Shown here one piece after another: positions 15,524 through 64,000 of a DNA stretch of 64,000 bases (positions are counted from its first letter, which is position 1; the number at the start of each line of letters is the position of its first letter). The notes below the pieces were generated by a model, which did not search any database, was not told the origin of the DNA, and was given only the letters and a program-made list of their open reading frames with translations. The DNA is from Isurus oxyrinchus. Taxonomy: Eukaryota. Both the position numbers and the translations under genes were made by a program. The DNA lies in the NCBI GenBank assembly GCA_026770705.1, contig JANJGN010000071.1, positions 1,302,001 through 1,366,000 on the forward strand, written 5' to 3'.

Positions 15524-15892
15524 TTGGACTGTCACAAGAGTGGAAAGGTGACACTCCACGAGAGGTGACAGCACAGGAAGGTTCGTGTGTACAGATTCCA
15601 TGTCATTTCAGTTATCCATCGTGTCTGGAAAACCAACCGCGAGGTGGAGTCTGGTTTAATAATGAGGAACATATTCCCTGGGCTCCCATTGACTTTCACT
15701 CCAAGGATCACAGTCACGAGTTACCACGGTTCTGCCATCGGACCCGGCTGTCTGGAGACCTGAAAGATGGCGACTGTTCCTTGATCATAGACAACATCAG
15801 ATGAGAAGATGCGGGACCTTATTTTTTCAGAATAGAATTTGACAATGGTCCAAGCCATAACTATTACCCTGTAACCCAGCTTCACGTTTCTG
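15524..15892 (+). pseudogene. Siglec V-set exon with premature stop (gene B)
   Basis: ctctccccAG acceptor and GTAAGT donor; 369 nt, phase 1-1. EGSCVQIPCHF, GDLKDGDCSL and DAGPYFFRIE show the Siglec Cys pattern and the sialic-acid-binding Arg. TGA at 15802-15804 where the paralogue has CGG. Confidence 0.9.
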
Positions 15893-16618
15893 GTAAGTGC
15901 TGTGTTATAATTACTCAACAATTCACATTCAACACTCAATGGGAAATAACACAAACTGTGACGTTTACATATTAACACAAACACAGTTTATTATAACACA
16001 CTGTCTGATTCTCAATAACCTGGTGATAGCTCCCAGTTCAGTCCTAAAGCAACCTCTAATACTCACTTTAATATCAATGATAAATGTATTGACTGTGTCC
16101 ATCAATGTTATCAAGTTATCCACTCCCATCGATCTCTCTAATCCTGTCTCGAAGTCTGACATATCGACAAAAGAAAGATTCACATTTCTATGGAGCCTTT
16201 CACCACCTCAATATGTACCAAGTCACTTCACAGCCAATGAGCTGATTCCTGAATTGTATTTACTGTTGTAATGTGAGAAACACAGCAGCCAATTTGCGCA
16301 CAGCTAGCTCCCACAAATTGCAAAGTACTAAATGGCCCAGATCATTGAGTGAATGATGGGGTAGTGCACTCCAAACTCTGGTCTGCTCCTCCACCCTCAC
16401 CCACTATTATCAGTTCAAGTGTCTCGGAGTGAACGTGTGTTAAACTGAGAGACAGAAACACCAAAGTCTCAAAGCAGGAAATTCTCTCCTGATCATTGTA
16501 ATCTCTCAGTTCTGATATCATCCTTGTAAAAGAGCTTTTTCTTGTGGGACTGTCATTTCTATTTGAACTGATGCTTCACGTTATATTTCTCTAAAAGGAT
16601 CCATTCTCTGTCTGTTAG

Positions 16619-16915
16619 ATTTCACAGATAAACCCATGATATTCCCTGCTGAAATTATTGCAGGAAAGCGTGTGGATGTAATCTGCACCTTCAACACAAC
16701 GTGCAATGGAACAGCAGCACCTGTCTTAACCTGGGACACTCCCACTGACGTACCTGGATCAGTCTCAAACACTGTAACTCAGCATGGTGTCACTCTGACC
16801 TATACTTCTGTTCTGACCCTGATCCCATCACTCAAACACCACGGACACACACTCAGCTGCAGAGTGAGATATCCATCTGTTTCATCGGAGCGGACTCTCG
16901 TACTAACTGTACAAG
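16619..16915 (+). CDS. Siglec domain-2 C2-set exon (gene B)
   Basis: 297 nt, phase 1-1; DFTDKPMIFPAEIIAGKRVDVICTFNTTCNGTAAPVLTW...LSCRVRYPSVSSERTLVLTVQ. The extra Cys (CTFNTTC) is typical of the Siglec D1-D2 disulfide. Confidence 0.9.
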
Positions 16916-17243
16916 GTAAGTTGAGAAATCCTTCTACATCAGCACTCCCTCAGCGCTGACCCTCTGACAGTGCAGCCCGTTCTCAGTATCCACATTCTCA
17001 TGCCTCTCAATTAGCTTCACAGTCGATAGAAGTTAACTGATCTTTATTTGATTGTTGCTGAATGAAGAGACAAGCTGTTTAAACTTTAAATCTCACACAC
17101 ATTATTTTCCATGGCAACACCTCTGAGACCACTTGCCAATCAATCAGCACTCTCTTCCCTTTAAATATAAATTGTTGTTCACTCTCTGTTGGTAAACATG
17201 CGATCTGTCTTGTTGAGTCCTGCCCTGATATCTGAATATCACA

Positions 17244-17379
17244 ATGAACAGAACAAGTTCCAACAATGAGCTGTGGTTGGTGATTCCTCACGTTAAATCC
17301 AGGGACACTGGAGACTATCAGTGTTTGGCAGAGAATGAACATGGAGCAGTGGAGGGATTCATAACCATCACTGTGGAAT
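17244..17379 (+). pseudogene. 5'-truncated C2 exon relic
   Basis: Only the second half (MNRTSSNNELW...ITITVE, GTGAG donor) of the 282-nt C2 exon remains; the acceptor and first Cys are replaced by unrelated sequence. Confidence 0.85.
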
Positions 17380-19063
17380 GTGAGTGCACACAGATTTCAT
17401 CATCTGTCTCAGATTGAAACATGACACAAACACACACAAATATACAGACCTAAATAGACACCTGCAGATACACAATCCCTTGTATATGAGCACACACAAA
17501 GACACCAACAAACACACTAGCACAATACTCCCCAGTGGGTTACCTGACCTCCCTCAGTGCTGCACTGGAGAGTTGACCTGGATTCTGAGATTTCTGTTCC
17601 CTTTCATGTTTATGGAAGAATATGGAAATTGCAAAGTCTATTACAGACACTCAGATGCATAGAGACACTCACAGATACTCTCTGTCTCTCCAACTCTCTA
17701 TCCTCCTTTAAGAAGCTTCCTGAAACCTAACCCTTTGACCAGTCAATTGTCCCAACTCTTCCTTACCTGAATCTGTGTGAAATTTTGTTTGAGTATCTGA
17801 GAGTAAGAGAGAGGTGGAGAGGTTTAGGAAGGGAATTCCTGTTGGTGAAAAGCTTACATCATGTTCTCACTTTTCCAGTGCCCGTATTTCACCTGATGTC
17901 CAATGTCCTTGTTTATAATAGGGATTGCCTATGTAAACGTCACGCTGTAGTTACACTGTACCACCAGTGGTGGCAAGGTAGCACTTAACCCTTGCATCTC
18001 TCAGCTTTTCAAGCAAATCCACTTCCCAGTTTGCTACACAAGCTGTGAGTTCATCGGAATTAAATTATTTCTCAAACGGTAGATTTGATGTCATTTTATT
18101 GAAAACTTCCTCAGCGCCTCCCTGAAGGGTTTACACTCTCCGGGAAGCAGGAATAGGCTGGATGTTGGGGAGTTCATCTTTTCCCAGAGAGTAGTGATCC
18201 TTGGGAATGTGCTGTCAGTGGGTGTGGTGGTTGCTGTTTCTCTGTCACCTTCAAGAGGGATCTGGAGTGGTTACTGACTGGGGGAGAGATCATGGAAGCG
18301 GAGAATGATACAGCACAGGAGGAGGCCATTCAGCCCATTGTGCCTGTGCCAGGTCTTTCAATGTGCTATCCAATCAGATCCACTAACCACCACTCCACTT
18401 TGCCCCCATCTTCCTCCTTCTAGTGTTTATCCAATTTCCCTTTTGAAAGTTCCTATTGAATCTGCTTCCACCGCCCTTTCAGGCAGAACCTTCCAGATCA
18501 CAACAACTCACTCTGTCAAAACAAATTCTCCTCATCTCCCCCTCCGGTTTGTCAATCTGTGTCCCTCTGGTTACCGACCCTCCTGCTCCTTAAATACATC
18601 GATACTGTTCACATCACCCACTCCCGGTGGGAGCGAGTTCCACATTCTCCCCTCTCTCTGGGTAAAGATTGGAACTGTTTATTAAGCGGGGGGTGTAAGT
18701 CCGTGGGGGAGTCCATCTCGATCCTGCCTGATTCGCACACATGTCCGAGATGGATTTCCACCCGGCACTAAACGTTTCCAGAATTTTCTACAGCACAATC
18801 CTGTACACAGCGATGGAGAGAAACATTGGACAGGGAGTCCAACAGCACAATGATCCATTCTCACCAATGTTCCACGCTAAGGGGAAAGTTCCGATTGTCC
18901 ACTCTTAGAGTGTTTACAATGAAAACATTCATTCCACATTGAATCCCAGTGGATGGGTCAATATTACAGCAAATGTTGCAGTGATATGAAGCTTGATTGT
19001 TCAGCCAGAGTGAGAGATTGAAAGCGGAGAGTCAGTGATGATTTCTTTCTGTGTGTTCTCTAG

Positions 19064-19203
19064 ACAGTGGAGGAGAGATTCTGCACGTGATCCTGATCCT
19101 GGGAATACGAGCTGTGATATTCCTTGTGGCTGTGGTTATCACTATCGCTGGAGTCTGTGTCTGGGAGAGACAAACAGTGAAAGGAAGTCGACAGACTGTT
19201 TGA
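19064..19203 (+). CDS. Terminal TM exon with intramembrane Arg and short tail (activating type, gene B)
   Basis: gttctctAG acceptor, phase 1; (D)SGGEILHVILILGIRAVIFLVAVVITIAGVCVWERQTVKGSRQTV*. Arg codon 19108-19110, TGA 19201-19203. Confidence 0.85.
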
Positions 19204-19309
19204 AGCTTTGTACAGCAACAATCTGGTCAGTCAGTGTGGACAAATAACGTGTGATGTTGGGTTAAGTTGTAAAGAAACTGGTCAGTGTCCTGGTTAGAAT
19301 CACCTTCGT

Positions 19310-19930
19310 ATCAGAGAGGCATTCCAGCACAGTAGGAGTCCATTCAGCCCATTGAGTCCATGCTGTCTCTGTGTAGAGCAATCCACTCAGTCCCATTTCC
19401 CCCTCTCTATCCCCGTATCTCTGCAAGTTTATTTCCCCTCAAGTGTCCAACCAATTTCTGTTTGATATCGTTCATCGTCTCCACTTCCACCATCCTCGTA
19501 GGCAGCGAGTTCCAGCTCATTACCACTCGCTGTGTAAAAAAGTTCCTCCTCACATCCCCCCTCTGCCCAAAACCTTCAATCTGTGTCCCCCAGTCCTTGT
19601 ACCATCAGCTAATGGCAACAGCTTCTCTTTGTCTACCTTATCTAAACCCATCATCATCTTGTACACCTCGATCAGATCCCGCCTCAATCTCCTTTGCTCC
19701 AAGGAGAACAACCCCAGCTTCTCCAACCCAACCTTGTAGCTAAAATCCCTCATCCCTGGACCCATTCTGCTCAATCTCCTCCCCACCCTCTCAAGGACCC
19801 TCACTTCCTTCCCAAAGTGAGGAGACCAGAACTGGACACAATACTCTAGTTGTGACCTAACCAGAGCTTTATAAATGTTCAGCATAACCTCCCTGTGTTT
19901 GTACTCAATCCCTCGATTTATGAAAAGCTT
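19310..19930 (-). mobile_element. CR1 LINE 3' fragment
   Basis: ORF 19550-20017: YKALVRSQLEYCVQFWSPH...LGLFSLEQRRLRRDLIEVYKMM. Confidence 0.9.
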
Positions 19931-20281
19931 ATTCTTTCCATCAGCACAAACAGCAATTTCCAAGCGGACTCCCATCAGCAGACAGAGTGCAATGAAACAT
20001 CGGCATGCCTGCTTCATAATGTACGGAGAGAATCCTGGAACGAGAGATTCTCCTTCTTCTCCTCAGCAAGCTGAAACTTTTCCTTATACCTGGTGCTCCC
20101 CAGTCCTGCTGTGTGGACACATCATAACCACGGCATTGTCTGGCTGTGTGCAGCCAACATGGTCGAATAGGAATGAACAGAAATGTGACGTTGCTAAACT
20201 CTGTTCTCTGATTGGAATGTGCTTTCTGAATGCTGCACCTTTTTCATGCTGCGATAGATTGTAAGAAGCATTTGGGTTATG

Positions 20282-20287
20282 AATAAA
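20282..20287 (+). terminator. Candidate polyadenylation signal for gene B
   Basis: AATAAA at the end of a 3'UTR block homologous to the 3'UTR of the ITIM gene (43700-43883); mirrored at 60613-60618. Confidence 0.5.
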
Positions 20288-21239
20288 ATTACATTGATTA
20301 ACACAAGTGATTAAAATGCTCAGCCTGTTCTGTAGCTATTTATAGATTAAAATTCTTATTTTGCTGCCAAATTCTTGGCTCAAAGACATTACTTCATGTT
20401 GTCACGTTTTCCAATCAGATGAATTCCTGTGCCCATCTTTATAATAGAAATTTCCAAAGTAAACATGTCACATTGCAGCTGCACACACTCCTGCCAGTGG
20501 GTGGTGCGATATGAAGGCTGCCTTGCTGCTCAGAAACAGCGAGAAATATTCCTGTTTTTGCATGAACTTCATGTGTGCATGAAACACAGGCATCAGAAGC
20601 AATTTTGTACAATTTGTACAATGTTCTTTAGACAGCGCAGCACTCCCTCTGTTCAAACCCTCCAACAGTGCAGCACTCCCTCAGTTCAAACCCTCCGACA
20701 TTGCAGCTCTACCTCAGTTCAAACCCTCCGACAGTGCAGCACTCCCTCAGTTCAAACCCTCCGACAGTGCAGCACTCCCTCAGTTCAGACGCTCTGACAG
20801 TGCAGCACTCCCTCAGTACTGATCCTCCGACAGTGCTGCACTACCTCACTAATTAGCGACTGGAAGGTTTATGTTCATTTATCTTTATTTTCCATTCCTA
20901 TTGAGCTATGGAGCTCCTGATTTGTCACCTTTCTGTACCTCGTCCAATGCTTCTGTTATCAGGACTTCCACATCGATGTGAAAGAGCCATGATGATAGCA
21001 GACAGTCGCACAATGGGAATGGCACTAGGCCAGTGATCCAGAGGCCCAGGTGAATGCTTTGGAGGTAAGGGTTCAAATCCCACCACGGCAGCTGGAGGAA
21101 TTTAGATTCGATTAATCAATAAATTTAATTGATTGATACATTTTTTTCTTATTCATTTCAGGGATGTTGGTGTCGCTGACTAGGCCAGTATTTGTTGCCC
21201 ATCCCCAATTGCCTTTGAGAACATATGGATATCTGAGTT

Positions 21240-22170
21240 AGGATCAGGAGTAGGTCACTCAGCCCCTCGAACCTGCTCCGCCATTCAGTAAGATCATGGC
21301 TGATCTGATTGTCACCTCAACCTCACATTCCTGTCTACCCCCAATGACCTTTCACCCCCTTGTTAATCAAGAATCTATCTAGCTCTGCCTTAAAAATATT
21401 CAAAGACCCTGTTTCCACTGCCTTTTGAGGCAGAGTGTTCCAAAGACTTACTACCCTCTGAGAGAAAAGATTTCGCCTCATCTCTATCTTAAATGAGCGA
21501 CCCCTTATTTTTAAAAAATGACCCCCTAGTTCTAGATTCTCACACAAGAGGGAACATCCTCTCCATATCCACCCTGTCAAGACTCCCCTGGATCTTAAAG
21601 GTTTTAATTAAGTCGCCTCTTACTCTTCTAAACTCCAGTGGATACAAGCCTAACCTGTCCAACCTGACCTCATAAGACAAACCACCCATTCCTGGTATTA
21701 GTCTAGTAAACCTTCTCTGAACTGCTTCTAATGCATTTACATCTTTCTTTAAGTAAGGTGACCTTACTGTACAGAGTACTCCAGATGTGGTCTCACCAGT
21801 GCCCTGTACAACTGAACATAACCTCCCTACTTTTCTATTCAATTCCCCACACAGTAAATTATAACATCCCATTAGCTTTCCTCATGACCTGCTGTATCTG
21901 CAAACCAGCCTTTTGTGATTCATGCACGAGGACACCCAGATCCCTCTGCATCTCAGAGCTCTACCATCTCTCACCTTTTAGATAATAATCTTCCTTCTTG
22001 TTCTTTCTGACAAAATGAACACTTTCACATGCGCCCACATTATTCTCCATTTGTCAGATCTTTGCCCACTCACTTAACCTATCGATGTCACTTTCTAACC
22101 ACCTTACATCCTCTTCACAATTTACTTTCCAACCTATCTTTGTGTCAGCAGCTCATTTCGCCGCCATTCC
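21240..22170 (-). mobile_element. CR1 LINE 3' fragment
   Basis: ALEAVQRRFTRLIPGMGGLSYEVRLDRLGLYPLEFRRVRGDLIKTFKI; mostly absent from the inverted copy. Confidence 0.88.
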
Positions 22171-22649
22171 TGGGCAGTCCAGGTGCTTCTCCACCGAGGT
22201 TCAAATGAGCACAGTTTATATATTTTTACTCTCAGTTACAAGGTAATGGTATTAGTTAGACAAAGGCCACAGCACAATGACCCTCCGGTGGGCTGATAAT
22301 TGTGTGCTTGTACAGTAATTACAGGGCAGAAACTGGCTATTGTCCTTTTGAGACAGCAAAGAATCTATGTTTGTTCAATACAAAAGGTTTCCGGAGGCTG
22401 ACTGGATGTGGTTCAAGGCCATCGGACGGTGTGAAATAACCTTCCCCATTTCTTGATTGAGTCACCCTGTGTCCTTGTGTGTGTGTCTCCCATTTCCTCA
22501 TTGCAAATTTACAGCTGAACCCTTTGTACAGGTTTTTAGCTTTCACGTAAGGATGTGATTGTCTGTGTACGCTTTGTCACCCTAGCTGCTGGTCCTGGCT
22601 GGCTCTTTAAAATAAATCCAAATTTTCTGCACCTTCAATGAGATTCTCT

Positions 22650-23720
22650 CTTGTTGAAGCTGGTCATTGCCTGGCACTTGTGTGGCATGAATGTTACTTA
22701 TCACCTGTCAGCCCAAGCCTGGATGTTGTCCAGGTCTTGCTGCATTTGGACATAACTTGCTTCAGTATCTGAGGAGCCGTGAATGGTGCTGAACATTGTG
22801 CAAACATCAGCAAACATCCCCACTTCTGACCTTATGATGGAAGGAAGGACATTGATGAAGCAGCTGAAGATGGTTGAGCCTAGGACACTACCCTGAGTAA
22901 CTCCTGCAGTGATGTCCTGGAACTGAGATGATTGACCCCCAATAATCACAACCATTTTCCTTTGTGCTGGGTCTGACTCCAAGCAGCAGAGAGTTTTCCC
23001 CCGATTCCCATTGACTCCAGTTTTGCTCGGGCTCCTTGATTTGCCACACTCAGTCAAATGCTGCCTTGATGTCAAGGACAGTCACTCTCACCTCACCTCT
23101 GGAGTTCAGCTCATTTGTGCATGTTTGAACCAAGGCTGTAATGAGGCCAGGAGCTGAATGATCCTGGTGGAACACAAACTGAGCGTCAGTGAGCAGGTTC
23201 TTGGTAAGCAGGTGCTGCTTGCAAGCGCTGTTGATGACCCCTTCCATCACTTTAGTAATGATCAAGAATAGACTGCTGGGGAATTGGCTGGGTTGGATTT
23301 GTCCTGCTTTTTGTGTACAGGACGTAACCCATAGACAGGTAGTTGCCAGTGTTGCAGCTGTACTAGAAAATTCCAGAAAGCTTGGCTAGGGGCGCAGCAA
23401 GTTCTGGAGCACAAGTCTTCAGTACTATTGCCGGAATAATGTCAGGGCCTGGAGCATTTGCAATATCCAGTGCCTTCAGCCCTTCCTTGATATCACATGG
23501 AATTAATCGAATTGGCTAAAGATTGGCATCTGTGATGCTGGGGACCTCCGGAGGAGGCCGAGATGGATCACCCACTCAGCACTTCTGGCTGAAGGTTGTT
23601 GCGCATGCTTCAGTCTTGTCTTTTGCACTGGCGGGCTGGGCTCCTCCATCATTGAGGATGGGGATATTTGTGGAGACTCCTCCTCCAGTGAGTTGTTTAA
23701 TTGTCCACGACTGGATGTGA
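22650..23720 (-). mobile_element. CR1-type LINE reverse-transcriptase fragment
   Basis: GVTQGSVLG...FINVLP...MFADV (RT core) and LDIKAAFD; frameshifted. Confidence 0.88.
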
Positions 23721-25559
23721 CATCTGGAATGCGAAGCTAGTCTCAGTAATGGTGACCATGAAACTAAGGCCAATTGTTGCAAAAACCCATCTGGGTCACT
23801 AATGCCCTTTGGGGAAGGAAACCTGCCGTCCTTACCCATTCTGGCCTACGTGTGACTCCTGACCCACAGCAATGTGGTTGACTCTTAACTGGCCCCTGAA
23901 ATGGCCGAGCAAGCTACTGAGTTATATCAAAACCCGCCACAGACCAGTCAAACCAGGCGAACTGCAGCACTTCGAAAAGGCAGCTCAGCACCCCCTTCTC
24001 AAGGGGTCAGTCAGGAACAGGTAACAAACGCTGTCCACATCCCGTGAAACAATTTTGGTAAAAAGGTAGCCCTGTATCACCACCCACGGCCAGCGCCAAC
24101 CCCCCCAACCCTACCTGATTGCACCAGTTTCAGATTACACCAGGTCAATGAACGGATAGAAACCCAAACCAATGAGATGAGCACAGAGAAGGATCAAGCC
24201 AGAGAGAGTTGGTGGGAAGAATTGGGAAAGCAACAAAAAAGGCAGAGCGGACACTAACACTATAACAAAGTAAAGACCAGAGGAGGAAGGAAGCAAGTGT
24301 GAAGAGGAATTGAGAGCAGAGCTGGTAGGCTGCTTGTCAAAGCCAAGGACCCTCCATAGGGCACATCCACAGTGCTGTTGGGGAGGGTGATACATGATTT
24401 TGACCCAGGATCATCAAGTTTTGCACTGGCAGAGCCTTTAAAGAAAAGGGACCTTCACTACCCGTGTCCCCCGCCCAACAAAGCTGTTGACATGCCGAGT
24501 CCACCTGTGCAGGCAACCTCCAGACAGTTGACTACAAAGGCCATTGCAGCTGCTGAATATGACTTCCAGTTTCAAAACCTTCATGAATACAAGGATGGGG
24601 GATTCAGCAGGAATATTCCTGCACATCCTGTGGCAGATCCTGTAAATAAAAGGGACCTTCACTCACTCCTCAAAGCTGCTGACCTGCTGATTCACATCTA
24701 CAGGCAACCTCCAAACAGTCGACTAGAGAAGACAATGCAGCTGCTGAATGTGACTCCTAGTTTCAAACCCTTCACTCTGGAAAGAAGGAATCCAGAGCAA
24801 TGGGCCTCACTATAATACTTGACAGAAACTGATTTTAACTCTCATCTCTAAGTATTATTTTTCCTTTGCTTACATTTTAATCCTTGCACCTGATGGCTTT
24901 ATTGCTTCAACTTAAATAACTTTCAGCAGGAGCCAGGTTCAAATTGAATGGACAAGCAGGCTTGGGAGGCCAAAAGGCCTACTCCTGCTTCTGTTTATTT
25001 ATGTTTGTGTTGTTATGTAGTGGAACTAGAGAGGTTATAGCAGTTATGAGAGCATTAAGCAAACAGCAGCAAGAATTGAATACCTACGTTGTGGTTTATG
25101 AAAAGGTTTTCAACCTGGTCAACTGGTAAAATCTGTTGAAAGTGGGCTATCATGGCGTGTGCCCTTTGTGAGATATTTGTAACAACGTTCTCGATGTCGG
25201 AACAGCTTGCATTGAACAAAGCTGATCTTTACCCAGAACTTCAGAGGAAGGGGGGACAATTGTTCCCTGGTGTGGGGAGCATGGTGGGGGGGGGAGGGTG
25301 GGGGAGAGACAAGTAGCCTGAAATACCAAGCCAGACACTTTGGGAAGACAAAAGTTGTTTATTCATTTTTTTTTACAAATCATCATCTTTACAATTAAAG
25401 TCCCGACAAGATAATGGTGAATCATGAACACATTGTCGGGGTGAATCTGTGCCCGGGAGCAGAAAGCAGCAAAATCAGCAGCCCGCTTTACATCTCTCTG
25501 AATTTTAACTATCATTAACCCCAGTAACATCCATTCAAATGACTTAGTCATAAGATTCC

Positions 25560-25800
25560 TCACACATTCACTTGCACACTCACACACCCACACCCACACA
25601 GACACACTGACACACTCACTCATTCACATTGACACACACTGACACAGTCACACACACCCACACAGACACACTGACACACTCACTCATTCACATTGACACA
25701 CACTGACAGTCACACACACCCACACAGACACACTGACACACTCACTCATTCACATTGACACACACATATTGACAGTCACACACACACACACACACACACA
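25560..25800. repeat. CA-rich compound microsatellite/minisatellite
   Basis: Directly visible; mirrored at ~53820-54125. Confidence 0.9.
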
Positions 25801-26132
25801 CGCTCATAAAGACAGACACAAACACAGTCACGTGAGGTGAATAGTGTCGATGTATTTAAGGGGAAGCTGGATAAACACACGAGGGAGAAATGAATAGAAG
25901 GATATGGTGATGGGGTGAGATGGAGAAGGGATGGGCGGAGACTCGTGTGGAGCAGAAACACCAGCATGGAACAGATGGGCCGAATGGCTTCTTTCCCTGC
26001 TGTAAAACGCAGGTAAAGTTTCAGTTGGAATTAATGAACAGGGCCTGTGTGAAATAGATTGCTAAGCAGTAGATAAGGAGGGGAGAGGCTGTGGCATGGT
26101 GCAGGATGACCTTGCGTGAATGAGGCCAGGGT

Positions 26133-26249
26133 CTAAAATCTACAGCAGAGACCACAAGTCTCATTTGGTTCTCTCCAATTACAGCAGTGACAGCAGAATC
26201 TGCAGCGCCGCTGTCTGCTCATTCTGTTCTGGCGCTGCAGCAAGGAGCC
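26133..26249 (-). CDS. hamp: Hepcidin exon 3 (end of pro region plus 8-Cys mature peptide)
   Basis: gcgtttccAG acceptor, phase 0; GSLLQRQNRMSRQRRCRFCCHCCNWREPNETCGLCCRF* has the C-x2-CC-x-CC-xn-C-G-x-CC hepcidin signature. Confidence 0.93.
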   Translation of the reverse strand, partial: GSLLQRQNRMSRQRRCRFCCHCCNWREPNETCGLCCRF

Positions 26250-28517
26250 CTGGAAACGCAGGAGGACAATAGGTGAGAACATTCCGGAAAGAAAGAAGGC
26301 ATCATTTCAATCAGGCGCGTCATTGGAAGGAGGATGGCGCAATTCTATAGCGCCTTTCCCCTCCTCAGGATGGCCCAAAGTGTTCCACAGCTGAAGGAAG
26401 GACTTTTTCTGAAGTGAGCTCACCGCTGTAATGTAGGAAACGCAGCAGGCAATTCACGCACAGCAAGATCCCACAAACAGAAATGTGATAATGGCCCCGA
26501 TTTTCAGTTTTTTACCAATGTCAGTTGAGGGATAAATGTTTGCCCCAGGAAAGCGGACATAACTGCATCCCATCCACCCCCCACCACCCCCTCCACACAT
26601 ACCCCCAACTCCTGACGCACTTCATTTAAATTGTGGCCATGGAATCCTCTACATCCATCTGAGAGGGCAGATGTTGTCTCAGTTTAACATCTCATCTGAA
26701 AGACAGCGCCTTCAACAGTGCAGCACCCCCTCAGTACTGACCGTCTGACAATGCAGCACCCCCTCAGTACTGACCCTCCAACAGTGCAGCACTCCCTCAG
26801 TACTGACCGTTTGACAATGCAGCACCCCCTCAGTACTGACCCTCCGACTGTGCAGTCCCCCGCCGGTACTGACCCTCTGACAGTGCAGCACTCCAAGACT
26901 GACCGTCTGACAATGCAGCACCCCCTCAGTACTGACCCTCCGACTGTCCTGCCCCCCCGCCGGTACTGACCCTCCGACAGCTCGGTAATTTCTCAATTAT
27001 GCCTGGTGGTCCTTTTAACTCAGAGCTGAGAGTTGCAGAGAATCGAGCACACATCCTGAACTGACACTTGCAGTGCAAGTACTGGGAGCGCGCTGGTCAT
27101 TATCATGCTGCTGTCTGTGGGATCTTACTGTGCGCCAATGGCTGATTCTTTTCCCACAGTACATCAGTGACCTCACATGAAAGAAAAAAAGCACTTGATT
27201 GTCTGCGAAACACTTTGGGACGTCCTGATGTGTTGGAAGGCGCTAGAGAAATGCAAGTCCTCTTTGTCTTTCACTCGATCCTCTAAGGTGTCTGTTGATT
27301 AACCAGCCTCTCGGTGTATGATGTAGGCCTGGTTATAAACAGTTAGAAGGATCAAATATCAAAAATGCTTTGGCTGACAGTCAAACCGATTGTGCATTCG
27401 GAGAGATTAGATATGGTCTGCACACAATGACTCCAGTCTCTGGCACTGACTGCCGCCTGGGGTCTCCCTTCCACATAACACTCACAACTTGCATTTACAC
27501 AGCGCCTCTGACTTTGCAAAATGTCCCAGCCCACATTACCGGAGCGTAAATCAGAGAGAAGTCTAACACTGAGTCACATATGGAGATATTAGGGTTAGGT
27601 GACCAAAAGCTTGGTCAAAGATGTCAGGTTTAAGGAGCGTCTTAAAGGAGAGAGAGAGAGAGAGGCAGAGAGGTTAAGGGAGGGTATTCCGGAGCTCAGG
27701 GCCCCAGGCAGCTGAAGGCACGGCCACCAATGGTGGAGCGATGGGAATCAGGGGGACCCGGGAGATGCAGTAATGTCAGAGATTTTGGAGGAACATCGGG
27801 ACCGGAGGAGGTGTTCTCCTGCTCCATATCTCTCTCTCTCTTCCTCTCATCCACTCCTCCTCTCCCTGTCTCTCTCTCTCCTACTCTTCCTCTCAATTGC
27901 CCTCTCTCCCAATCTTTCACTCCTCTCTCCCTTTTCCTGTCTCTCTCCCTCTCTCTCCCCTGTCTCCTTCTCCCACTCTGTATCTCTCCCTCTCTCTCAC
28001 AGTATTTTTGTACCTTTCGCTCACTCTGTAACTCTCCCTTTCCTGTTAATTTCTCTCTCTTGGACAATCTCTCTTCCCTTTTCACTTTCCCTCACTCCGC
28101 ATCTCTTCTTTAATTTCTCCCTCTGTCACTCTCTCCCACCTATGTTCTTTCCCTTTCACCCCTCCCCGTCCCACTCTCTGTCTCTCTCTTCCAATCCCTC
28201 CCTCCCCCATTCCATCCCTCTCTCCGACTCTCGACTCCCAGCCTCTCTTTAACCCACTCCCAGGCTGGATCAGTCTCCCTCTCACTATTCCCGGCGTGGG
28301 TTACATTTAAAATTCCTGTGGGGATATGTTCACTTCCTTGGAATTGCCTCTTCCCAGCTTTGCAAAAAAAGTGGGGGCGGGGGGGGCTCGATTTCAAACA
28401 TGCCTCCTGAGTATAACCGAGACAGACTGCCACTGAAATCAGCTTGAAATCAGAAAACTTTCTGTGGAAGAAACGAGCAGGGAGAAACCTTAAAATAAGG
28501 AATGAATTTCCACCTAC

Positions 28518-28574
28518 CGTGTCCGGGGAATCCACAGATTTCTCAATCGTCGAAGAACCTAAAGCAGTGTCAAC
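28518..28574 (-). CDS. hamp: Hepcidin exon 2 (pro region)
   Basis: ctttttgcAG acceptor and GTAGGT donor; 57 nt, phase 0-0; VDTALGSSTIEKSVDSPDT. Confidence 0.82.
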
Positions 28575-30410: not shown

Positions 30411-30503
30411 CCTCGACAAGGAGAAGAAGTGACTCAGCTGCAGGGAGAGCAGCAAAGTCAGAGTGAACAAGACAAGTCGCCATTTCATCTGGGAGCTTCC
30501 CAT
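30411..30503 (-). CDS. hamp: Hepcidin exon 1 (signal peptide)
   Basis: ATG 30503; MGSSQMKWRLVLFTLTLLLSLQLSHFFSLSR then GTAAGC donor; 93 nt, phase 0. The 31+19+38 aa, all-phase-0 layout matches the vertebrate HAMP structure. Confidence 0.85.
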
Positions 30504-30574
30504 CTCTGCCTGTCTCTTCTGATCTTCTGGCTCTGCTTTGATGCTTTGGTTTGTAACTAGAGGAGCTTCCTGCT

Positions 30575-30790
30575 CTTATACCTGAAACACTTGAAGGGGA
30601 CAGCCGCGGGTGGGTAGCTGTGTGGTATCACACCCATTTCTGGATATTGCAGTGTCGATGTTCCCTGTCCCACTGGCCTGGGACCAGCAGTAAGGTCACT
30701 GGGACATAGACTGTCTGGCGCCGAGAACTATCAGTCCCTCCGCAACGCCCTTCACCTTGTGCAAATATGTGTTCATATTGATGCAACACA
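30575..30790 (-). promoter_or_regulatory. Hepcidin proximal promoter: TATA, BMP/SMAD element, C/EBP-like sites
   Basis: TATAAG 30580-30575; GGCGCC-AGACA-GTCT 30722-30708; TTGTGCAA 30757-30764; TGATGCAA 30779-30786. Confidence 0.72.
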
Positions 30791-43592: not shown

Positions 43593-43883
43593 CCCCTGAT
43601 TCACATTGACTCCAGTTTTACTCGGGATCCTAGATGCCACACTCGGTCAAATGCAGACTTGATGTCAAAGGCAGTCACTGTCACCTCACCTTGTATTAAC
43701 AGATGTAAAATTATACATAATTCATAAGCTTCTCACAATCTTTTACAGCATGGAAAAAGGTGCAGCATTCAGAAAGCTCAGTTAAAACCAATAAAAAAAA
43801 GTTGAGCAACATCATATTTGTGTTCATTACTATTTGGCCATGTTGGCTGCACACACCCCACAGCCCCGCTCCCTGTTTCACAC

Positions 43884-44132: not shown

Positions 44133-45180
44133 CTACAGAGAAATAGAAACAGAAGACATCCTCACATCATTTACTGGCACTGATAGGGTTAAGTTATTCT
44201 GCAGCCTCGTTACTGTCAGTCATGTCTCAATGGGTTTAACCCTCTTTTTCACTCTCTTTCTCTGTCTCCTTTTTTTCAATCTCTTTCTCTGTCTCCCTTT
44301 CTCTCTCTCTCTCTTGCTTTCTCTCTCTATTTATCATGTAATCTCTCTCGCTATCGCAGACCTGAGTCTTGAAGTCCTATGTTACCATCCCAATCATGAG
44401 ATTTGTGCCCCATTATTCACAAACACAGACACACAAAGAACCTCACGCCAATGAAGGAATTTTATTGAAGGGCGACACTGCTACAGTGTTGGAAATGTGG
44501 CCATGGGACCAGATAAGATGGTAAACATGGTCAGCATTATACAACTATTCTGAAAGAGGCATCTCGAACACTGCAATGTTCTCTCAGTGCTCTCTGCTGA
44601 CAGTGCAGCTCTCCCTCGGAACTGCCCCTTCAAGAGGGCAGCACCCCTTGAAAATGGACTCTTTGACAGTGCAGCACTCACTCAGTACTGTCCTCAGTAC
44701 TGACCATCCGACAGTGCAGCACTCCCTCAGTACTGGCCCTCCGACAGTGCAGCACTCCCTCAGTACTGACCATCCGACAGTCCAGCACTCCCTCAGTACT
44801 GACCCTATGACAGCGCAGCACTCCCTCAGTACTGACCCTCTGACAGTCTAGCTCTCCCTCAGTACAGACCCTCTGACAGTGCAACACTCCCTCAGTACTG
44901 ACCTTCTGACACTCCAGCACTCCCTCAGCACAGGCCCTAGGACAGTGCAGCACTCCCTCACTACTGACATCAGGTGCCTTGTCATTATTGCGTTCAGGTT
45001 TCTGGTCAAAGAGCGAGTGATGGAGGGAAGAGGGGGAGGGAGCGAGAGACAATGCTACCTACTGAGCCATATCTGACTCCACAGGTAGATATCTGTGGGT
45101 AACCTGGCTGGGAATCTGGGACATGTGTTGTCTACACACTGAGATTGAAGCTTTGGAGTGAGTGTAAACAGCTCCTGTAC

Positions 45181-45262
45181 CTGGTGCTTCACAGAGAGTG
45201 GACTGGGGGTCAATACAATGTCACTGGTCCCTGAAACTCTCTCCTCCATCGCTGTCTTTCTC
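45181..45262 (-). CDS. Juxtamembrane cytoplasmic exon (gene C)
   Basis: 82 nt, phase 2-0; RKTAMEERVSGTSDIVLTPSPLSVKHQ; links the TM and ITIM exons exactly in frame. Confidence 0.82.
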
Positions 45263-45799
45263 CTGCAATAACACAATATCACACTGTGGTTATCATATAG
45301 CAGAGAGTCAGTGCAGCACAGACACAGAGCCCAGTGTAACCTTACACCAACGAATGGACTGTCTCTAGTTCCAATAAGGGATATCAGCGTGACATCACTA
45401 TAATGGAAGTGTGTCATGTGATCCAATCTTAGTTTGACTTTTGCTTTGAGCAGAACACACACTCACAGCTCTGATGCCTTCAATCTTTCTCCATATGTAT
45501 AACTGTTCTCGTGCCGAGTCTTGATAAACAAATCATTAACATTCTCACCCAATCCCTGTGAGCGATTGGTGCTTTGTTTCTTGTACAATAAATAAGCCTA
45601 AGGTATAATATCATTATAATGACACGCCATATCTTTGACCCCCCCTCCACCCCTGCTCTTCCCCCCATAGCCCTTCAAATGTTCCCCCTTCAAGTATTTA
45701 TCCAATTCCCCTTTTGAAAGATCCTATTAAATCTGCTTCCAGCGCCCTTTCAGGCAGCACCTTCCAGATCACAGCAACTGATTATTATTCATCTGGATA

Positions 45800-46290
45800 A
45801 CGGGCAATGAAAAACACTGTCTGGATCGTAAGGGACAAAAGAGACCAGTTACGGAGAGGCATCTAGTGCTTAACACAAGGGAAACAATCACCGACTTCAG
45901 GAAAGAACATTGAAGCAAATATTTATCCAGGAGTAATCGTGCAGAGTGAGGAATCTCTGGGTCTCGTGATTGTTTACTGGATACAGGACAATGAAAGGTT
46001 CTCTCCGGATCATAGTGGACACAGGGACCAGTTACGGAGAGGGACCTGGTGCTGATCCCAAGGGAAACAATCACCGACTTAAGGAAAGAACATTGAAGCA
46101 AATATTTATCCCGGAGTAATCGTGCAGAGTGAGGAATCTCTGGGTGTCGTGATGGTTTACCTGGATACAGGACATTGAAAGGTTCTCTCCGGATCAGAGT
46201 GGACACAGGGATCACTTACAGAGAGGGACCTGGTGCTGATCCCAAGGGAAACAATCACCGACTTAAGGAAAGAACATTGAAGCAAATGTT
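45800..46290. repeat. ~183-bp tandem repeat, about 2.5 copies
   Basis: gaaacaatcaccgactt recurs at 45881, 46064 and 46248. Confidence 0.9.
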
Positions 46291-46323
46291 TATATTAAAA
46301 TCAAGTTAAATCTTCAGACTTAC

Positions 46324-46420
46324 TTTCTCACACAGATGAAGATGAAGATTCCAGCCAGGAAAACACTCAACATGATCCCAGCCGTGAACAATCCTACTGT
46401 CCATTTACTGGAGTCTCTAC
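46324..46420 (-). CDS. Uncharged transmembrane exon (gene C)
   Basis: tttttacAG acceptor and GTAAGT donor; 97 nt, phase 1-2; RDSSKWTVGLFTAGIMLSVFLAGIFIFICVRK. Confidence 0.88.
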
Positions 46421-47235: not shown

Positions 47236-47517
47236 GTTCCACAGTGATGGTTATGAACCCCTCCACTGCTCCATGTTCATTCTCTGCCACACACTGATAG
47301 TCTCCAGTGTCCCTGGATGTAACGTGAGGAATCACCAACCACAGCTCATTGTTGGAACTTGTTCTGTTCATTGGGACATTAAGATGTCGCCACGTCAGGT
47401 TAGAAGCTGGGAAGCTCTCGACAGAGCAGATTATCACTGCAGAATTCCCCTCAATTATATTGATCGATGAAGCGTTAATCATACCAAGTGAAGTAAATGA
47501 GAGATCCTGTGGTGCAT
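47236..47517 (-). CDS. C2-set Ig exon 3 (gene C), open
   Basis: 282 nt, phase 1-1; DAPQDLSFTSLGMINASS...ICSVESFPASNLTWRH...GDYQCVAENEHG...TVE. Confidence 0.9.
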
Positions 47518-48208
47518 CTAAAAACAAATCAAGTGTTTAATGTGAGCAAACCTATTGCACAGCAAGACTCCATGCATCATATCTCTGTATCTGATGTCTG
47601 AATGCATTTCCAGGTAACTTCCCTCAGGATAACGTCTTATGCCACATTTTTAATGGACACTGCCTATGTAAACTGTCACACTGCAGTTGCATTCTCCCAC
47701 CAGTAGAGGTGTTGTCCATCTAGAATGAAAGAAGCTTGCTTTCACATCCTCAGGATTTCGCAAAGGGCTGGACAGGCAATGAATTGTACTTGATTGATGG
47801 AGCACTGAGGGGTAAATCTACAATTCTCTGTTCAGGAGGTTGCTCATCCAATTCAGGGTCTTGTTGATCTGGAGTTTACCTTCCTTCAACACAGAATCGG
47901 AGCTGATACCAAGACTCCAGTGCGGCACTGAGAGAGGAGAGGGAACTCACGTGTGTATATCTGTGTGTTTGTGTTTCTGCACATGTGAGTGTGTTTGTGT
48001 GTGTATGCACACATGTGTCTGTGTGTGTGCATGCGCGTGTGTCTGTGTGTCTAGGTCTGTCCATGAGTGAGAGTATGTGCATGTGTGTGTCTATGTGTGG
48101 GCATGAATGTGTGTGTGTGTTTGAGATGGGTGTGTATTTTCCTGTGTATGTGCTTGTATGTGTATGACTGTGTGTGGATAATTATGCATGTGTGTGCCTA
48201 CAGGTTTC

Positions 48209-48241
<33 letters not shown>

Positions 48242-48300
48242 CTGTGTGTGTGTGTGCGTGTGTGTGTGTGTGAGTGATGTTGGAGTTTGCAGTAACTCAC

Positions 48301-48581
48301 GTTCCACAGTGATGGTTATGAACCCCTCCACTGCTCCATGTTCATTCTCTGCCACACACTGATAGTCTCCAGTGTCCCTGGATGTAACGTGAGGAATCAT
48401 CAACCACAGCTCATTGTTGGAACTTGTTCTGTTCATTGGGACATTAAGATGTCGCCACATCAGGTTAGAAGCTGGGAAGCTCTCGACAGAGCAGATTATC
48501 ACTGCAGAATTCCCCTCAATTATATTGATCGATGAAGCGTTAATCATATCAAGAGAATTAACTAAGAGATTCTGGGTGCGT
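48301..48581 (-). pseudogene. C2-set Ig exon 2 (gene C) with a 1-bp deletion near the acceptor
   Basis: 281 nt rather than 282; the canonical acceptor gives xAC GCA CCC AGA ATC TCT TAG; the rest of the domain is open in the shifted frame. Confidence 0.8.
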
Positions 48582-49335
48582 CTAAAAGAAATAAAGATTT
48601 TAATGTGAGCAAGCATAGTGCACAGCAAGACTCCATGCATCATCTCTCTGTATCTGATGTTGGAATGCTTTTCCAGGTACCTTCCCTCATGAAAAATTAC
48701 TGTCATATTTATAATGGTCACTTCCTATGTAAACTGTCACACTGCAGTTGCTTCCTCCCACCAGTAGAGTTGCTAACCCTCTAGAATGAAAGAAACATCC
48801 TTTAACACTCTCAAGATGTCCCCAAGGGCTTGATAGGCAATGAATTGTATTTGATCGATGGAGCACTGAGGGCTAAATCTACATTTCTCTGTTCAGGAGG
48901 TTGCTCATCCAATTCAGGGTCTTGCTGATCTGGAGTTTACCTTCCTTCAGCACAGAATGGGAGCTGATACCATGACTCCAGTGCAGCACTGAGAGAGGAG
49001 AGGGAGCTCACACTTGTGTGTGTACTTCTGCACGTGAGTTTGTATTTGTGTGTATGCGCGTGTCTGTCAGCACATGTGTGGACGCGTGTGTGTGTGTGTG
49101 TGTGTGTGTGTCTGTGTGTGTATGTCTGTATGTCTGTGCTTGAGGGAGTGTGTGTGCATGTGTGTGTCTTTGTGTGCGCATGAATGTTTGTATGTGTGAG
49201 TTGAGTTTGTGTGTGTTTCTGTGTATGTGTTTGAACGTATGTTTGTGTGTAAGTGTGCATGTTTGTGTCTACACATGAGTGTTTTTGCATGTGTGAGTGT
49301 GTGTGTGAGAGATGTTGAAGTCTGTGTACACTCAC

Positions 49336-49617
49336 ATTCCACAGTGATGGTGATGAATCCCTCCACTGCTCCATGTTCATTCTCTACCACACACTGATAG
49401 TCTCCAGTGTCCCTGGATGTAACGTGAGGAATCACCAACCACAGCTCATTGTTGGAACTTGTTCTGTTCATTGGGACATTAAGATGTCGCCACGTCAGGT
49501 TAGAAGCTGGGAAGCTCTCGACAGAGCAGATTATCACTGCAGAATTCCCCTCAATTATATTGATCGATGAAGCATTAATCATTTCAAGCGAAGTAAATGT
49601 GAGATTCTGTGGAGCAT
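49336..49617 (-). CDS. C2-set Ig exon 1 (gene C), open
   Basis: 282 nt, phase 1-1; DAPQNLTFTSLEMINASS...GDYQCVVENEHG...TVE. Confidence 0.9.
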
Positions 49618-53371: not shown

Positions 53372-53488
53372 GGCTCCTTGCTGCAGCGCCAGAAGAGAAT
53401 GGGCAGACAGCAGCTCTGCAGATTCTGCTGTAACTGCTGTAATTGGAGAGAACCAAATGAGACTTGTGGTCTCTGCTGTAGATATTAG
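53372..53488 (+). pseudogene. hamp: Orphan hepcidin exon 3 (second paralogue; exons 1-2 not present in the window)
   Basis: cttttccAG acceptor; GSLLQRQKRMGRQQLCRFCCNCCNWREPNETCGLCCRY*; open, 8 Cys, canonical RQKR site. Confidence 0.85.
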
Positions 53489-61001: not shown

Positions 61002-61141
61002 TCAAACAGTCTGTCGACTTCCTTTCACTGTTTGTCTCTCCCAGACACAGACTCCAGCGATAGTGATAACCACAGCCACAAGGAATATCACAGCTCGTAT
61101 TCCCAGGATCAGGATCACGTGCAGAATCTCTCCTCCACTGT
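61002..61141 (-). CDS. Terminal TM exon with intramembrane Arg (activating type, gene D)
   Basis: Same peptide as 19064-19203: SGGEILHVILILGIRAVIFLVAVVITIAGVCVWERQTVKGSRQTV*. Confidence 0.85.
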
Positions 61142-62255
61142 CTAGAGAACACACAGAAAGAAATCATCACTGACTCTCCGCTTTCAATCTCTCACTCTGG
61201 CTGAACAATCAAGCTTCATATCACTGCAACATTTGCTGTAATATTGACCCATCCACTGGGATTCAATGTGGAATGAATGTTTTCATTGTAAACACTCTAA
61301 GAGTGGACAATCGGTACTTTCCCCTTAGCGTGGAACATTGGTGAGAATGGATCATTGTGCTGTTGGACTCCCTGTCCAATGTTTCTCTCCATCGCTGTGT
61401 ACAGGATTGTGCTGTAGAAAATTCTGGAAACGTTTAGTGCAGGGTGGAAATCCATCTCGGACGTGTGTGCGAATTGGGCAGTATCGGGATGGACTCCCCC
61501 ACGGACATACACCCCCCGCTTAATAAACAGTTCCAATCTTTACCCAGAGAGAGGGGAGAATGTGGAACTCGCTCCCACAGGGAGTGGTCGAGGTGAATAG
61601 TAGCAAATTAGGAAGTGAAATTGCTTGAAAAGCTTGGAGATGCAAGGGTTAAGTGTTACCGTGCTACCACTGGTGGGAGAGTGTAACTACAGTGTGACGT
61701 TTACATAGGCAATCCCCATTATGAACATGGACATCATGTGAAAAATGGGCACTGGAAAGCTGAGAACTTGATGTAAGCTTTTCACCAACAGGAATTCCCT
61801 TCCTAAACCTCTCCACTTCCCTCTTATTCTCAGATACTCAAACAAAATTTCACACAAAATCACGTAAGGAGGAATTGGGACTGGTGACTGGTCAAAGAGT
61901 TAGATTTCAGGAAGGTTCTTAAAGTAGGATAGAGAGTTGGAGAGGCAGAGAGTATCTGTGAGTATCTCTGTGCATCTGAGTGTCTGTAATAGACTTTGCA
62001 ATTTCCATATTCTTCCATAAATATGAAAGGGAACACAAATCCCAGAATCCAGGTCAACTCTCCGGTGCAGCACTGAGGGAGGTCAGGTAATCCACAGGGG
62101 AGTATGTGCTAGTGTGTTTGTTTGTGAGTGTGTCTTTGTGTGTGCTCATAGATGTGGGATTGTGTGTCTGCAGGTGTCTATTTAAGGCTGTATATTTATG
62201 TGTGTTTTTGTAGTGTTTCAATCTGAGAGAGATGTTGAAGTTTGTCTTAACTAAC

Positions 62256-62391
62256 GTTCCACAGTGATGGTTATGAACCCCTCCACTGCTCCATGTTCAT
62301 TCTCTGAGCACACTGATAGTCTCCAGTGTCCCTGGATGTAACTGTGAGGAATCACCAACCACAGCTCATTGTTGGAACTTGTTCTGTTCAT
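62256..62391 (-). pseudogene. 5'-truncated C2 exon relic (mirror of 17244-17379)
   Basis: Same truncation point; also carries a +1 and a -1 indel that scramble the GDYQC motif. Confidence 0.82.
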
Positions 62392-62731
62392 TGTGATATT
62401 CAGATGTCAGGACCGGACTCAACAAGACAGATTGCAGGTTTACCAACAGAAAGTGAACAACAATTTATATTTAAAGGGAAGAAAGTGCAGGTTAATCAGC
62501 AAGTGGTCTCTGATTGGAGGAGGTGTTGCCATGGAAAATAATGTGTGTGAGATGTAAAGTTTAGACAGCTTGTCCCTTCATTCAGCAACAATCAAATAAA
62601 GATCAGTTAACTTCTATCGACTGTGAAGCACTTTGAGAGGCATGAGAATGTGGATACTGAGAATGGGCTGCACTGTCAGAGGGTCAGCGCTGAGGGAGTG
62701 CTGATGTAGAATGAATGGTGTATGTAATTAC

Positions 62732-63028
62732 CTTGCACATTTAGTACGAGGGTCCGCTCCGATGAAACAGATGGATATCTCACTCTGCAGCTGAGATTGT
62801 GTCCGTGGTGTTTGAGTGATGGGATCAGGGTCAGAACAGAAGTATAGTTCAGAGTGACACCATGCTGAGTTACAGTGTTTGAGACTGATCCAGGTACGTC
62901 AGTGGGAGTGTCCCAGGTTAAGACAGGTGCTGCTGTTCCATTGCACGTTGTGTTGAAGGTGCAGATTACATCCACAGGCTTTCCTGCAATAATTTCAGCA
63001 GGGAATATCGTGGGTTTATCTGTGAAAT
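62732..63028 (-). CDS. Siglec domain-2 C2-set exon (gene D), open
   Basis: 297 nt, phase 1-1; DFTDKPTIFPAEIIAGKPVDVICTFNTTCNGTAAPVLTW...LSCRVRYPSVSSERTLVLNVQ. Confidence 0.9.
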
Positions 63029-63756
63029 CTAACAGACAGAGAATGGATCCTTTTAGAGAAATATAACGTGAAGCATCAGTTCAAATAGAAATCACAGTCC
63101 CACAAGAAAAAGCACTTTTACAAGGATGATATCAGATCTGAGAGATTACAATGATCAGGAGAGAATTTCCTGCTTTGAGACTTTGGTGTTTCTGTCTCTC
63201 AGCTTAATACACGTTCAGTCCGAGACACTTGAACTGATAATAGTGGGTGAGGGTGAAGGAGCAGACCAGAGTTTGGAGTGCACTACCCCATCATTCACTC
63301 AGCAATCTGGGCCACTTATTACTCTGCAATTTGTGGGAGCTTGCTGTGCGCAAATTGGCTGCTGTGTTTCTCACATTACAACAGTAAATACAATTCAGGA
63401 ATCAGCTCATTGGCTGTGAAGTGATTTGGTCCGTGCTGAGGTGGTGAAAGGTGCTATAGAAATGTGAATCTTTCTTCTGTCGCTATGTCAGACTTCGAGA
63501 CAGGATTAGAGAGATCGATGGGAGTGGATAACCTGATAACATTGATGGACACAGTCAATACATTTTATCATTGATATTAAAGTGAGTATTAGAGGTTCCT
63601 TTAGGAGTGAACTGGAAGCCATCACCAGGTTATTGAGAATCAGACAGTGTGTTATAATAAGCTGTGTTTTGTGTTAATATGTAAATGTCATAGTTCGTGT
63701 TATTTCCCATTGAGTGTTGAATGTGAATTGGTGAGTAATTATAACACAGCACTTAC

Positions 63757-64000
63757 CAGAAACGTGAAGCTGGGTTACAGGGTAATAGTTATAGCTCGGA
63801 CCATTGTCAAATTCTATTCTGAAAAAATAAGGTCCTGCATCTCCCCGTGTGATGTTGTTTATAATCAGGGAACAGTCGCCATCTTTCCGGTCTCCAGACA
63901 GCCGGGTCCGATGGTGGAACCGTGGTAACTCGTGACTGTGATCCTTGGAGTGAAAGGCTGTAGACGATGTTCTCCATTCCTCATTATTAAGCCAGACTCC
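63757..64000 (-). CDS. Siglec V-set exon, 3' part (gene D), open; continues beyond the window
   Basis: GVWLNNEEWRTSSTAFHSKDHSHELPRFHHRTRLSGDRKDGDCSLIINNITRGDAGPYFFRIEFDNGPSYNYYPVTQLHVS then GTAAGT donor; essential Arg retained, no stop. Confidence 0.9.

Follow-up and report, generated by a model that had tools for sequence, protein, structure and literature searches.

A hepcidin gene in a lamniform Siglec cluster, and a likely hidden array of type-2-like hepcidin copies

The hepcidin gene, its transcripts and its copy number

The stretch analysed here, called the window below, comprises 64,000 nucleotides of the Isurus oxyrinchus genome (assembly GCA_026770705.1, contig JANJGN010000071.1, positions 1,302,001–1,366,000, forward strand; coordinates count from its first letter). 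It holds a hepcidin gene (hamp), a second copy of the last hepcidin exon and several Siglec receptor genes, laid out around two inverted arms. The left hepcidin gene is complete and lies on the minus strand, and its three exons (31 + 19 + 38 codons) are separated by GT-AG introns, all in phase 0. Exon 1 (30411..30503) encodes the signal peptide and is 94% identical to that of a basking shark hepcidin, P0124, while exon 2 (28518..28574) encodes the pro-region. Both occur once in the window, outside the duplicated block. Only exon 3 is duplicated: the left copy (26133..26249, minus strand) belongs to the gene, and the right copy (53372..53488, plus strand) is an orphan in the assembly.

Both exon-3 copies score above the cut-off of 27 for the Pfam Hepcidin family (PF06446; 29.9 and 31.6 bits). 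Both encode eight cysteines, at positions 16, 19, 20, 22, 23, 32, 35 and 36, in the order C-x2-CC-x-CC-loop-C-x2-CC with a loop of eight residues. They differ by six amino-acid changes; all six nucleotide differences are non-synonymous and none is synonymous. The predicted convertase site R-x-K/R-R reads RQKR in the right copy and is followed by MGRQQL. The left copy has RQNR in that place, followed by MSRQRR; it gains two arginines and with them a candidate new site, RQRR, six residues on. The four-disulphide β-hairpin fold is putative here: an AlphaFold model, built on a three-sequence alignment, has a mean predicted local distance difference test score of 54 and is not usable.

On the same strand, upstream of exon 1, the sequence reads as a TATA-like box (30574..30580) and, 205 bases 5′ of the start codon, as GGCGCC-N5-GTCT (30708..30722). 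The latter is the only such element in the window (0.03 expected; a match anywhere in 3 of 100 shuffles), the pattern having been picked after the site had been noticed. The pattern TTCYNRGAA, which we take to be a STAT-type site, is absent from both strands of the whole window, where about 7 matches would be expected. In human HAMP the BMP element is GGCGCC with a 5-base spacing to GTCT (PMC3203580, PMC3879105; here and below, published statements are taken from the available portions of the sources), and the shark element is of this BMP/SMAD type.

Part of the interval 25840–26700 was present in 20 of the 24 listed sequencing runs, from two organisms (A and B), and four runs (X1, X2, X3 and X10) were aligned to 25840–28900. 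X2, X3 and X10 are DNA-like (three studies, two organisms); no run is recorded as RNA, and X1 was treated as such because it contains splice joints. The joint between exons 2 and 3 (26248/26250 to 28517/28520, GT-AG) occurs in 9 + 1 X1 contigs and in none from X2, X3 or X10. Loose ends of X1 at 28575 and 26250 coincide with the ends of exons 1 and 2, and in X1 the depth over exon bins exceeds that over intron bins by a factor in the hundreds. Where the arms differ in coding sequence, the main X1 form carries the right arm's letter at 6/6 sites. The positions 26209 and 26226 have the same leftover depth, 9717, which is well above intron depth and suggests expression of one left-type contig as well. 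Other minor variants are seen at 26150 and 26168; in one X1 contig, exon 2 is joined by a minor cryptic splice to an acceptor that lies within intron 2 (27327–28517). Organism B carries the right copy's letter at five of the six coding differences. The N-terminus of the mature peptide differs among the left copy, the right copy and organism B; the loop, NWREPNET, is constant.

Depth in the DNA-like runs points to many more copies than the assembly contains. The comparison uses X3 and X10, which are taken as whole-genome runs and come from two organisms. In X3, depth reaches 1141–2000 in six listed pieces with at most 5 differences, whereas two diverged pieces stand at 23 and 27, which gives a median ratio of 61. 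In X10, three listed pieces have depths of 613–850 against 14–38 for four diverged pieces; the median ratio is 39, with a repeat piece (depth 288) left out of this background. Exon 2 (in X3) and the whole of exon 3 (in X10) are among the sequences covered by the deep pieces, so these pieces are not merely mobile elements. X2, a small run with only 142 Mb of contigs, assembles the gene in pieces of 863 and 617 bases at a flat depth of 17–36. Its contigs have right-arm letters at 10 listed sites in 25881–26742 yet lack the right arm's 163-base insert, which argues that neither arm represents the main class. It is likely that the haploid genome holds roughly 20–60 near-identical hamp copies, which share most 31-base words and were collapsed in assembly. 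Depth was gauged over 25840–28900, that is, over hepcidin and no Siglec.

Siglec genes and the inverted duplication

Siglec A, on the plus strand, has a signal-peptide exon at 10055..10094 (with a second copy at 7841), a V-set exon at 15524..15892 with the arginine of the FFRIE motif and an in-frame TGA, and an open C2-set exon at 16619..16915, beside which lies a remnant, a further half Ig exon (17229..17384). Its last exon (19064..19203) encodes a transmembrane segment with an arginine and a short tail without tyrosine. Siglec B, on the minus strand, comprises the open 3′ part of a V-set exon (63757..64000; the 5′ part lies past the window edge), an open C2-set exon (62732..63028), a frameshifted half Ig exon remnant (62254..62406) and a last exon (61002..61141) identical to that of Siglec A. 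V-set and Ig_CD22 matches, the FFRIE motif, which presumably carries the sialic-acid-binding arginine, and a following C2-set_2 domain identify them as Siglecs, A being broken by its stop codon; sialic-acid binding is predicted only. The basic membrane segment ILGIRAVIF and the short tail without an immunoreceptor tyrosine-based inhibitory motif (ITIM) mark the activating type, with putative adaptor binding. The two arginine exons (19064–19203 and 61141–61002) show 0/142 differences and the neighbouring DNA is 5–9% apart, which may reflect gene conversion or strong constraint.

Siglec Y, an inhibitory-type gene on the minus strand, has three tandem Ig exons within 47236..49617 (49617–49336 and 47517–47236 open, 48581–48301 one base short) and no V exon of its own. 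Its 3′ part (43884..46420) consists of an uncharged transmembrane exon and two cytoplasmic exons with the ITIM-type motifs LFYANI and TEYAQI, one of them an ITIM and the other ITIM-like. The 3′ part of Siglec X (484..5700, plus strand) has two Ig exons, each with a TGA, an uncharged transmembrane exon and a tyrosine-bearing tail; from its sequence it is likely a pseudogene. The gene inventory of the initial annotation was incomplete in that it overlooked these inhibitory segments (0.5–5.7 kb and 43.9–49.6 kb) and the complete left hamp.

On the strand that carries B, Siglec Y follows further downstream (49617–43884 after 64000–61002). The V and C2 exons of B could splice to the arginine exon or, skipping it, to the ITIM tail of Y; hepcidin exon 3 would then lie within the intron, in antisense orientation. 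Among 149 fetched proteins, none had both activating and inhibitory motifs, which says nothing on alternative ends. In their 3′ untranslated DNA the activating genes are 76–79% like Y (20142–20307 versus 43858–43690; 60593–60732 versus 43690–43832), and A and B each keep half an Ig exon. From these two features a Y-like gene is the likely source of the activating forms. The Siglec signal exon and Ig exon units of about 1 kb are locally duplicated in tandem, at 7192–8503 and 9403–10728, at 47228–50365 and at 6–2037.

The C2 exon of the window has its best matches in white shark proteins (up to 95%) and basking shark proteins (92%), followed by catsharks, carpet sharks and rays, which points to a lamniform source. 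The A/B family gave 170 matches among 292 candidates across sharks and rays. The arginine membrane motif was present in 18 of the 149 fetched proteins, 12 of them from white shark on 6 small scaffolds, and the C2 domain of A agrees with a white shark protein at 96/98 residues versus 93/98 with B. MAG and CD22 are conserved single-copy genes whose products have five or seven Ig domains, against two whole Ig exons in each of A and B. Judged by sequence, the window receptors are members of an elasmobranch CD33-like family, paired and many-membered, and are not MAG or CD22. Their nearest counterparts are the paired CD33-related Siglecs of mammals (Siglec-5/14 and -11/16), which likewise combine similar V + C2 ectodomains in a tail-less form with an arginine in the membrane and a form with ITIM and ITIM-like motifs, and which also include inverted neighbours and pseudogenes. 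Unlike them, the shark family is elasmobranch-wide and is named by automatic annotation alone.

Of the 374 frames of at least 62 residues, 216 were selected by complexity and by position (left of 51455). Together with 3 frames of the right arm they made up a set of 219 stop-to-stop frames, in which Pfam detected Ig domains, two fragments of reverse transcriptase, a single satellite artefact and nothing else. Other cysteine-rich hits in the window are satellite or retroelement frames and were discarded.

The left arm (15646..28034, plus orientation) pairs with the right arm (64000–51455, minus orientation) through six collinear inverted blocks of 91.8–98.7% identity. The inverted copies claimed by the initial annotation are therefore real in the assembly, with the reservation that 15646 merely mirrors the window edge at 64000; since the outer end is set by that edge, the duplication is at least 12.4 kb long. 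Substitutions affect 421 of 10040 aligned bases (4.2%) when two 500-bp bins at 21146–22145 are dropped, and 632 of 10689 when those bins, in which different retroelement pieces face each other, are kept. Divergence declines inwards, from 6.3% (outer part) to 2.7% (inner part) and 1.1% (9/791) in the innermost 791 bases. The right arm alone has an insert at 58464–59425 (962 bp) and another at 52247–52409 (163 bases), the left arm alone has 18035–18602 and 19475–20162, and a 33-bp satellite counts 6.6 copies on the left versus 25.7 on the right. The retroelements at 21.2–22.2 kb, the larger insert and the satellite had all been named in the initial annotation as differences between the arms and are confirmed. 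Five runs of N (140–232 bases each) lie between the arms, at 35.8–40.0 kb, and none at the inner junctions.

In each arm, as originally described, an activating-type Siglec with its arginine transmembrane exon stands tail-to-tail with hepcidin exon 3. The inner breakpoint falls inside hepcidin intron 2: at 51455 this intron is joined to DNA upstream of the 3′ half of the inhibitory Siglec, and beyond the junction the DNA on the two sides is unrelated. The damage is reciprocal, the left arm having a whole hepcidin gene and a broken Siglec and the right arm an open Siglec and an orphan exon 3. With the breakpoint in intron 2 and only one gene intact per arm, the duplicated block is not a working two-gene unit of Siglec and hepcidin, and the initial idea is unsupported in the form given. 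The stop codons, the frameshifted exon, the half exons and the orphan exon agree with the birth-and-death process proposed for the region. The inverted duplication alone is ordinary for such a cluster.

Several observations concern the arms and their surroundings. Segments at 33.6–34.7 kb and 36198–37248 are inverted copies (~70–79%) of 50326–51439, just past the right junction, and may mark further fragments hidden in the gaps. The centre, 28035–51454, has hepcidin exons 1 and 2 at one end and Siglec Y at the other, such that its inversion would swap both partners. A retroelement piece lies 3′ of exon 3 in both arms (23163–23053; 56526–56631) and is 92% identical to the last exon of the basking shark hepcidin isoform X3 (P0123); it is a shared flank or a common repeat.

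Type-1-like and type-2-like hepcidins in sharks and their linkage to Siglec genes

Type 1 hepcidins are defined by the N-terminal motif Q-S/I-H-L/I-S/A-L and type 2 by its absence (PMC8502971). The window peptide lacks the motif, reading MGRQQL or MSRQRR against MSHLSV in P0124. The latter (LOC144671611, XP_078389754.1), annotated as an uncharacterized protein, has 88 residues, the same exon split, a mature part that starts at MSHLSV and a loop that reads NKKGTKKT. By the published definition, and on sequence grounds, P0124 is type-1-like and the window peptide type-2-like. Besides lacking the motif, the window form is not the single gene expected of type 1, with two exon-3 copies in the window and depth ratios of ~61 and 39; like a type 2 hepcidin it is multi-copy by depth and coexists with a type-1-like gene. 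Two X1 loose ends read HLSICMYCCG and NKKGTK, in agreement with P0124. The two shark forms share their length of 88 residues, exon split, cysteine spacing, loop length, linkage to Siglecs and 94% of exon 1. They differ in the MSHLS N-terminus and lysine-rich loop of P0124, exon 3 of the window being 50% identical.

A protein search with exon 1 returned only two basking shark isoforms (2/2 candidates) and no other shark hepcidin of 31–100 residues. The left exon 3 found no relative among proteins of 31–100 residues; two matches in a representative protein library were low-complexity and were discarded. A metagenome scan for a 23-base loop motif gave 0 matches. Nurse shark plasma contains hepcidin (PMC9207270), and the available portions of PMC6795676 and PMC3832898 hold nothing on shark hepcidin. 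Our literature search, of an incomplete coverage that left most subscription journals outside, found nothing published on the types or copy number of hepcidin in sharks or on their paired Siglecs.

The known system that the window form most resembles is the type-2 hepcidin (hamp2/hampII) of teleosts, which is placed in Percomorphaceae and Ovalentaria only (PMC6240063) and belongs to a pattern of lineage-specific tandem expansions (PMC9073008). The likeness extends to three exons, eight cysteines, a furin-type site, the missing Q-S/I-H-L/I-S/A-L motif, several copies (in tandem in teleosts) beside a type-1 gene, and fast change. The window peptide also has the CRFCCNCC core in common with PDB 1s6w (E 0.26). 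In contrast, the host is a cartilaginous fish, and the signal, the pro-region and the 8-residue loop are shared with the shark type-1-like gene; the loop of Larimichthys crocea peptides has ~4–5 residues, and three to five genes are cited for teleosts (PMC6240063), as against tens of near-identical copies by depth in the shark. The window peptide further has an N-E-T sequon. Because exon 1 and loop length are shared with the shark type-1-like gene, a separate origin from teleost type 2 is likely.

In basking shark, the P0124 hepcidin and the four Siglec clusters that we looked up share one contig of 13,667,426 bases and have near accession numbers. The mammalian HAMP linkage includes CD22. It also includes USF2, FFAR and MAG (PMC4453067). 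As in mammals, hepcidin adjoins Siglec genes in the shark, but its neighbours here are an expanded Siglec family. The window yielded no sequence of MAG, CD22 or FFAR, a negative that does not reach USF2 and LSR with their short exons. The echo of the HAMP–MAG–CD22 linkage suggested in the initial annotation thus holds insofar as hepcidin–Siglec linkage recurs in basking shark, and fails insofar as the receptors are not MAG or CD22. An ancestral HAMP–Siglec neighbourhood is plausible.

Interpretation of the locus

We assign a probability of about 0.55 to the following reading: the window is part of a lamniform Siglec cluster, its hamp gene and orphan exon are two diverged side copies of a collapsed type-2-like array of tens of genes, and a type-1-like gene serves iron. 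The alternatives below overlap with it and with one another, and the probabilities do not sum to one. Under the favoured reading, ectopic recombination among the repeats of the region would build and erode the cluster. One event would have copied an activating Siglec and the 3′ end of hepcidin in inverted orientation, the block ending in intron 2, and each arm would then have lost one of its two genes. Most hepcidin copies would lie elsewhere, in a homogenised array alike enough for the assembler to merge. The 88-residue precursor would be secreted and cut by furin at RQKR to give a 29-residue peptide with four disulphides; high gene dose would support high secretion, with BMP/SMAD control via the upstream element. 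The peptide would target microbes rather than ferroportin, and the separate type-1-like gene would handle iron. A defence role is pointed to by the loss of the type-1 motif, the variable N-terminus, the amplification and the separate type-1-like gene.

Several points weigh against this reading. Contig depth is a rough gauge, and summed depth is cautioned against as a measure of copy number; the background consists of only 2 (X3) and 4 (X10) listed pieces, 65% and 48% of the two runs were read, and a factor of two is open between a haplotype and a diploid background. Run kinds are automatic guesses with tissue not given, X1 possibly comes from the assembled animal, and the identity of organism A with the window's species is taken from 99.6% identity outside the arms (3/778 bases differ in X2). 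No loose end at 28034 is among the 24 listed, with 3020 more beyond these, and the right inner junction is neither supported nor contradicted. The excess of changes in exon 3 (6/93 sites versus 29/1798 flanking bases; Fisher p 0.006) is suggestive only of selection, with p 0.018 without the innermost block and 0.06 versus a 3% background; all six being non-synonymous has, taken alone, p 0.29. On the side of function, the N-E-T sequon in the loop is odd for a membrane-active peptide, the BMP element fits iron control equally, and some teleost type-2 peptides have no antibacterial activity and affect iron (PMC6240063).

The best-placed alternative, which we nevertheless regard as a minority view, makes activating Siglec plus hepcidin the repeating unit of the array, co-amplified and seen in the window as two damaged units. 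The same tail-to-tail order extends over 12 kb in both arms, white shark has the 12 annotated proteins with the arginine motif on small scaffolds, basking shark has hepcidin and Siglecs on one contig, and the depth result is compatible with it. On the other hand, the only breakpoint seen cuts the hepcidin gene and neither arm keeps both genes intact, and depth taken over hepcidin shows nothing of an equal Siglec copy number.

A little less probable is a mis-join, by which exons 1 and 2 would belong with the right-type exon 3, an assembly crossover having occurred in the 98.9% identical inner block of 791 bases, and the left exon 3 would be the orphan beside the dead Siglec A. The main mRNA does splice exons 1 and 2 to a right-type exon 3, this block is the part in which the arms are most alike, five gaps are present between the arms, and the left copy differs from the main class at 3/778 positions outside the block and 17/1453 inside (p 0.10). 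Yet the main mRNA can be explained by the unseen array, the left-type transcript seems real given its X1 depth, the right arm has private changes missing from the main class, and both junctions lie in gap-free sequence.

We think it improbable that the amplified peptide remains chiefly a hormone of iron control, its altered N-terminus fitting shark ferroportin and its gene dose serving iron withholding. The canonical BMP/SMAD-type element, the missing TTCYNRGAA site and the low net charge (~+2 for the main peptide, below that of the type-1-like peptide with five lysines and no acids, and a further point against defence) would suit such a role. Against it, neither the main nor the left form has the His or the type-1 motif, variation is greatest at the N-terminus, there is a separate type-1-like gene, and strong amplification is the teleost type-2 pattern (PMC9073008, PMC6240063). 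The arms look like paralogues, and it is quite unlikely that they are two alleles of one locus scaffolded head to head: the gaps between them and the very diverged haplotypes that immune clusters can have would suit alleles, and the presence of both exon-3 types in one RNA sample a heterozygote, but 4.2% substitutions and six indels of more than 150 bases stand against ~0.4% between window and samples outside the arms, Siglec A resembles white shark paralogues more closely than it does B, and past the inner junction the two sides have unrelated DNA.

A bolder version of the favoured reading is speculative and in our view improbable. It holds that lamniforms have their own type-2 hepcidin, independent of teleosts, long-looped and possibly glycosylated, with 20–60 homogenised genes amplified together with activating Siglecs as one innate-immune module. 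The arms could then flip the 23-kb centre and thereby swap both the exon 3 joined to hepcidin exons 1 and 2 and the ectodomain joined to the ITIM tail.

What is new at this locus is likely a hidden array of type-2-like shark hepcidin, which, if so, would be separate from the bony-fish expansion. Paired activating and inhibitory Siglec forms are now documented in sharks, and hepcidin–Siglec linkage in two lamniform genomes. If the favoured reading is true, the locus would be a case of a high-copy immune gene concealed by assembly collapse, and its product a new peptide scaffold, with an 8-residue loop and a sequon, not found in the protein collections searched. If sharks have a type-2-like class in addition to a type-1-like gene, the split between hormone and defence would have arisen twice, in lineages about as far apart as jawed vertebrates go.

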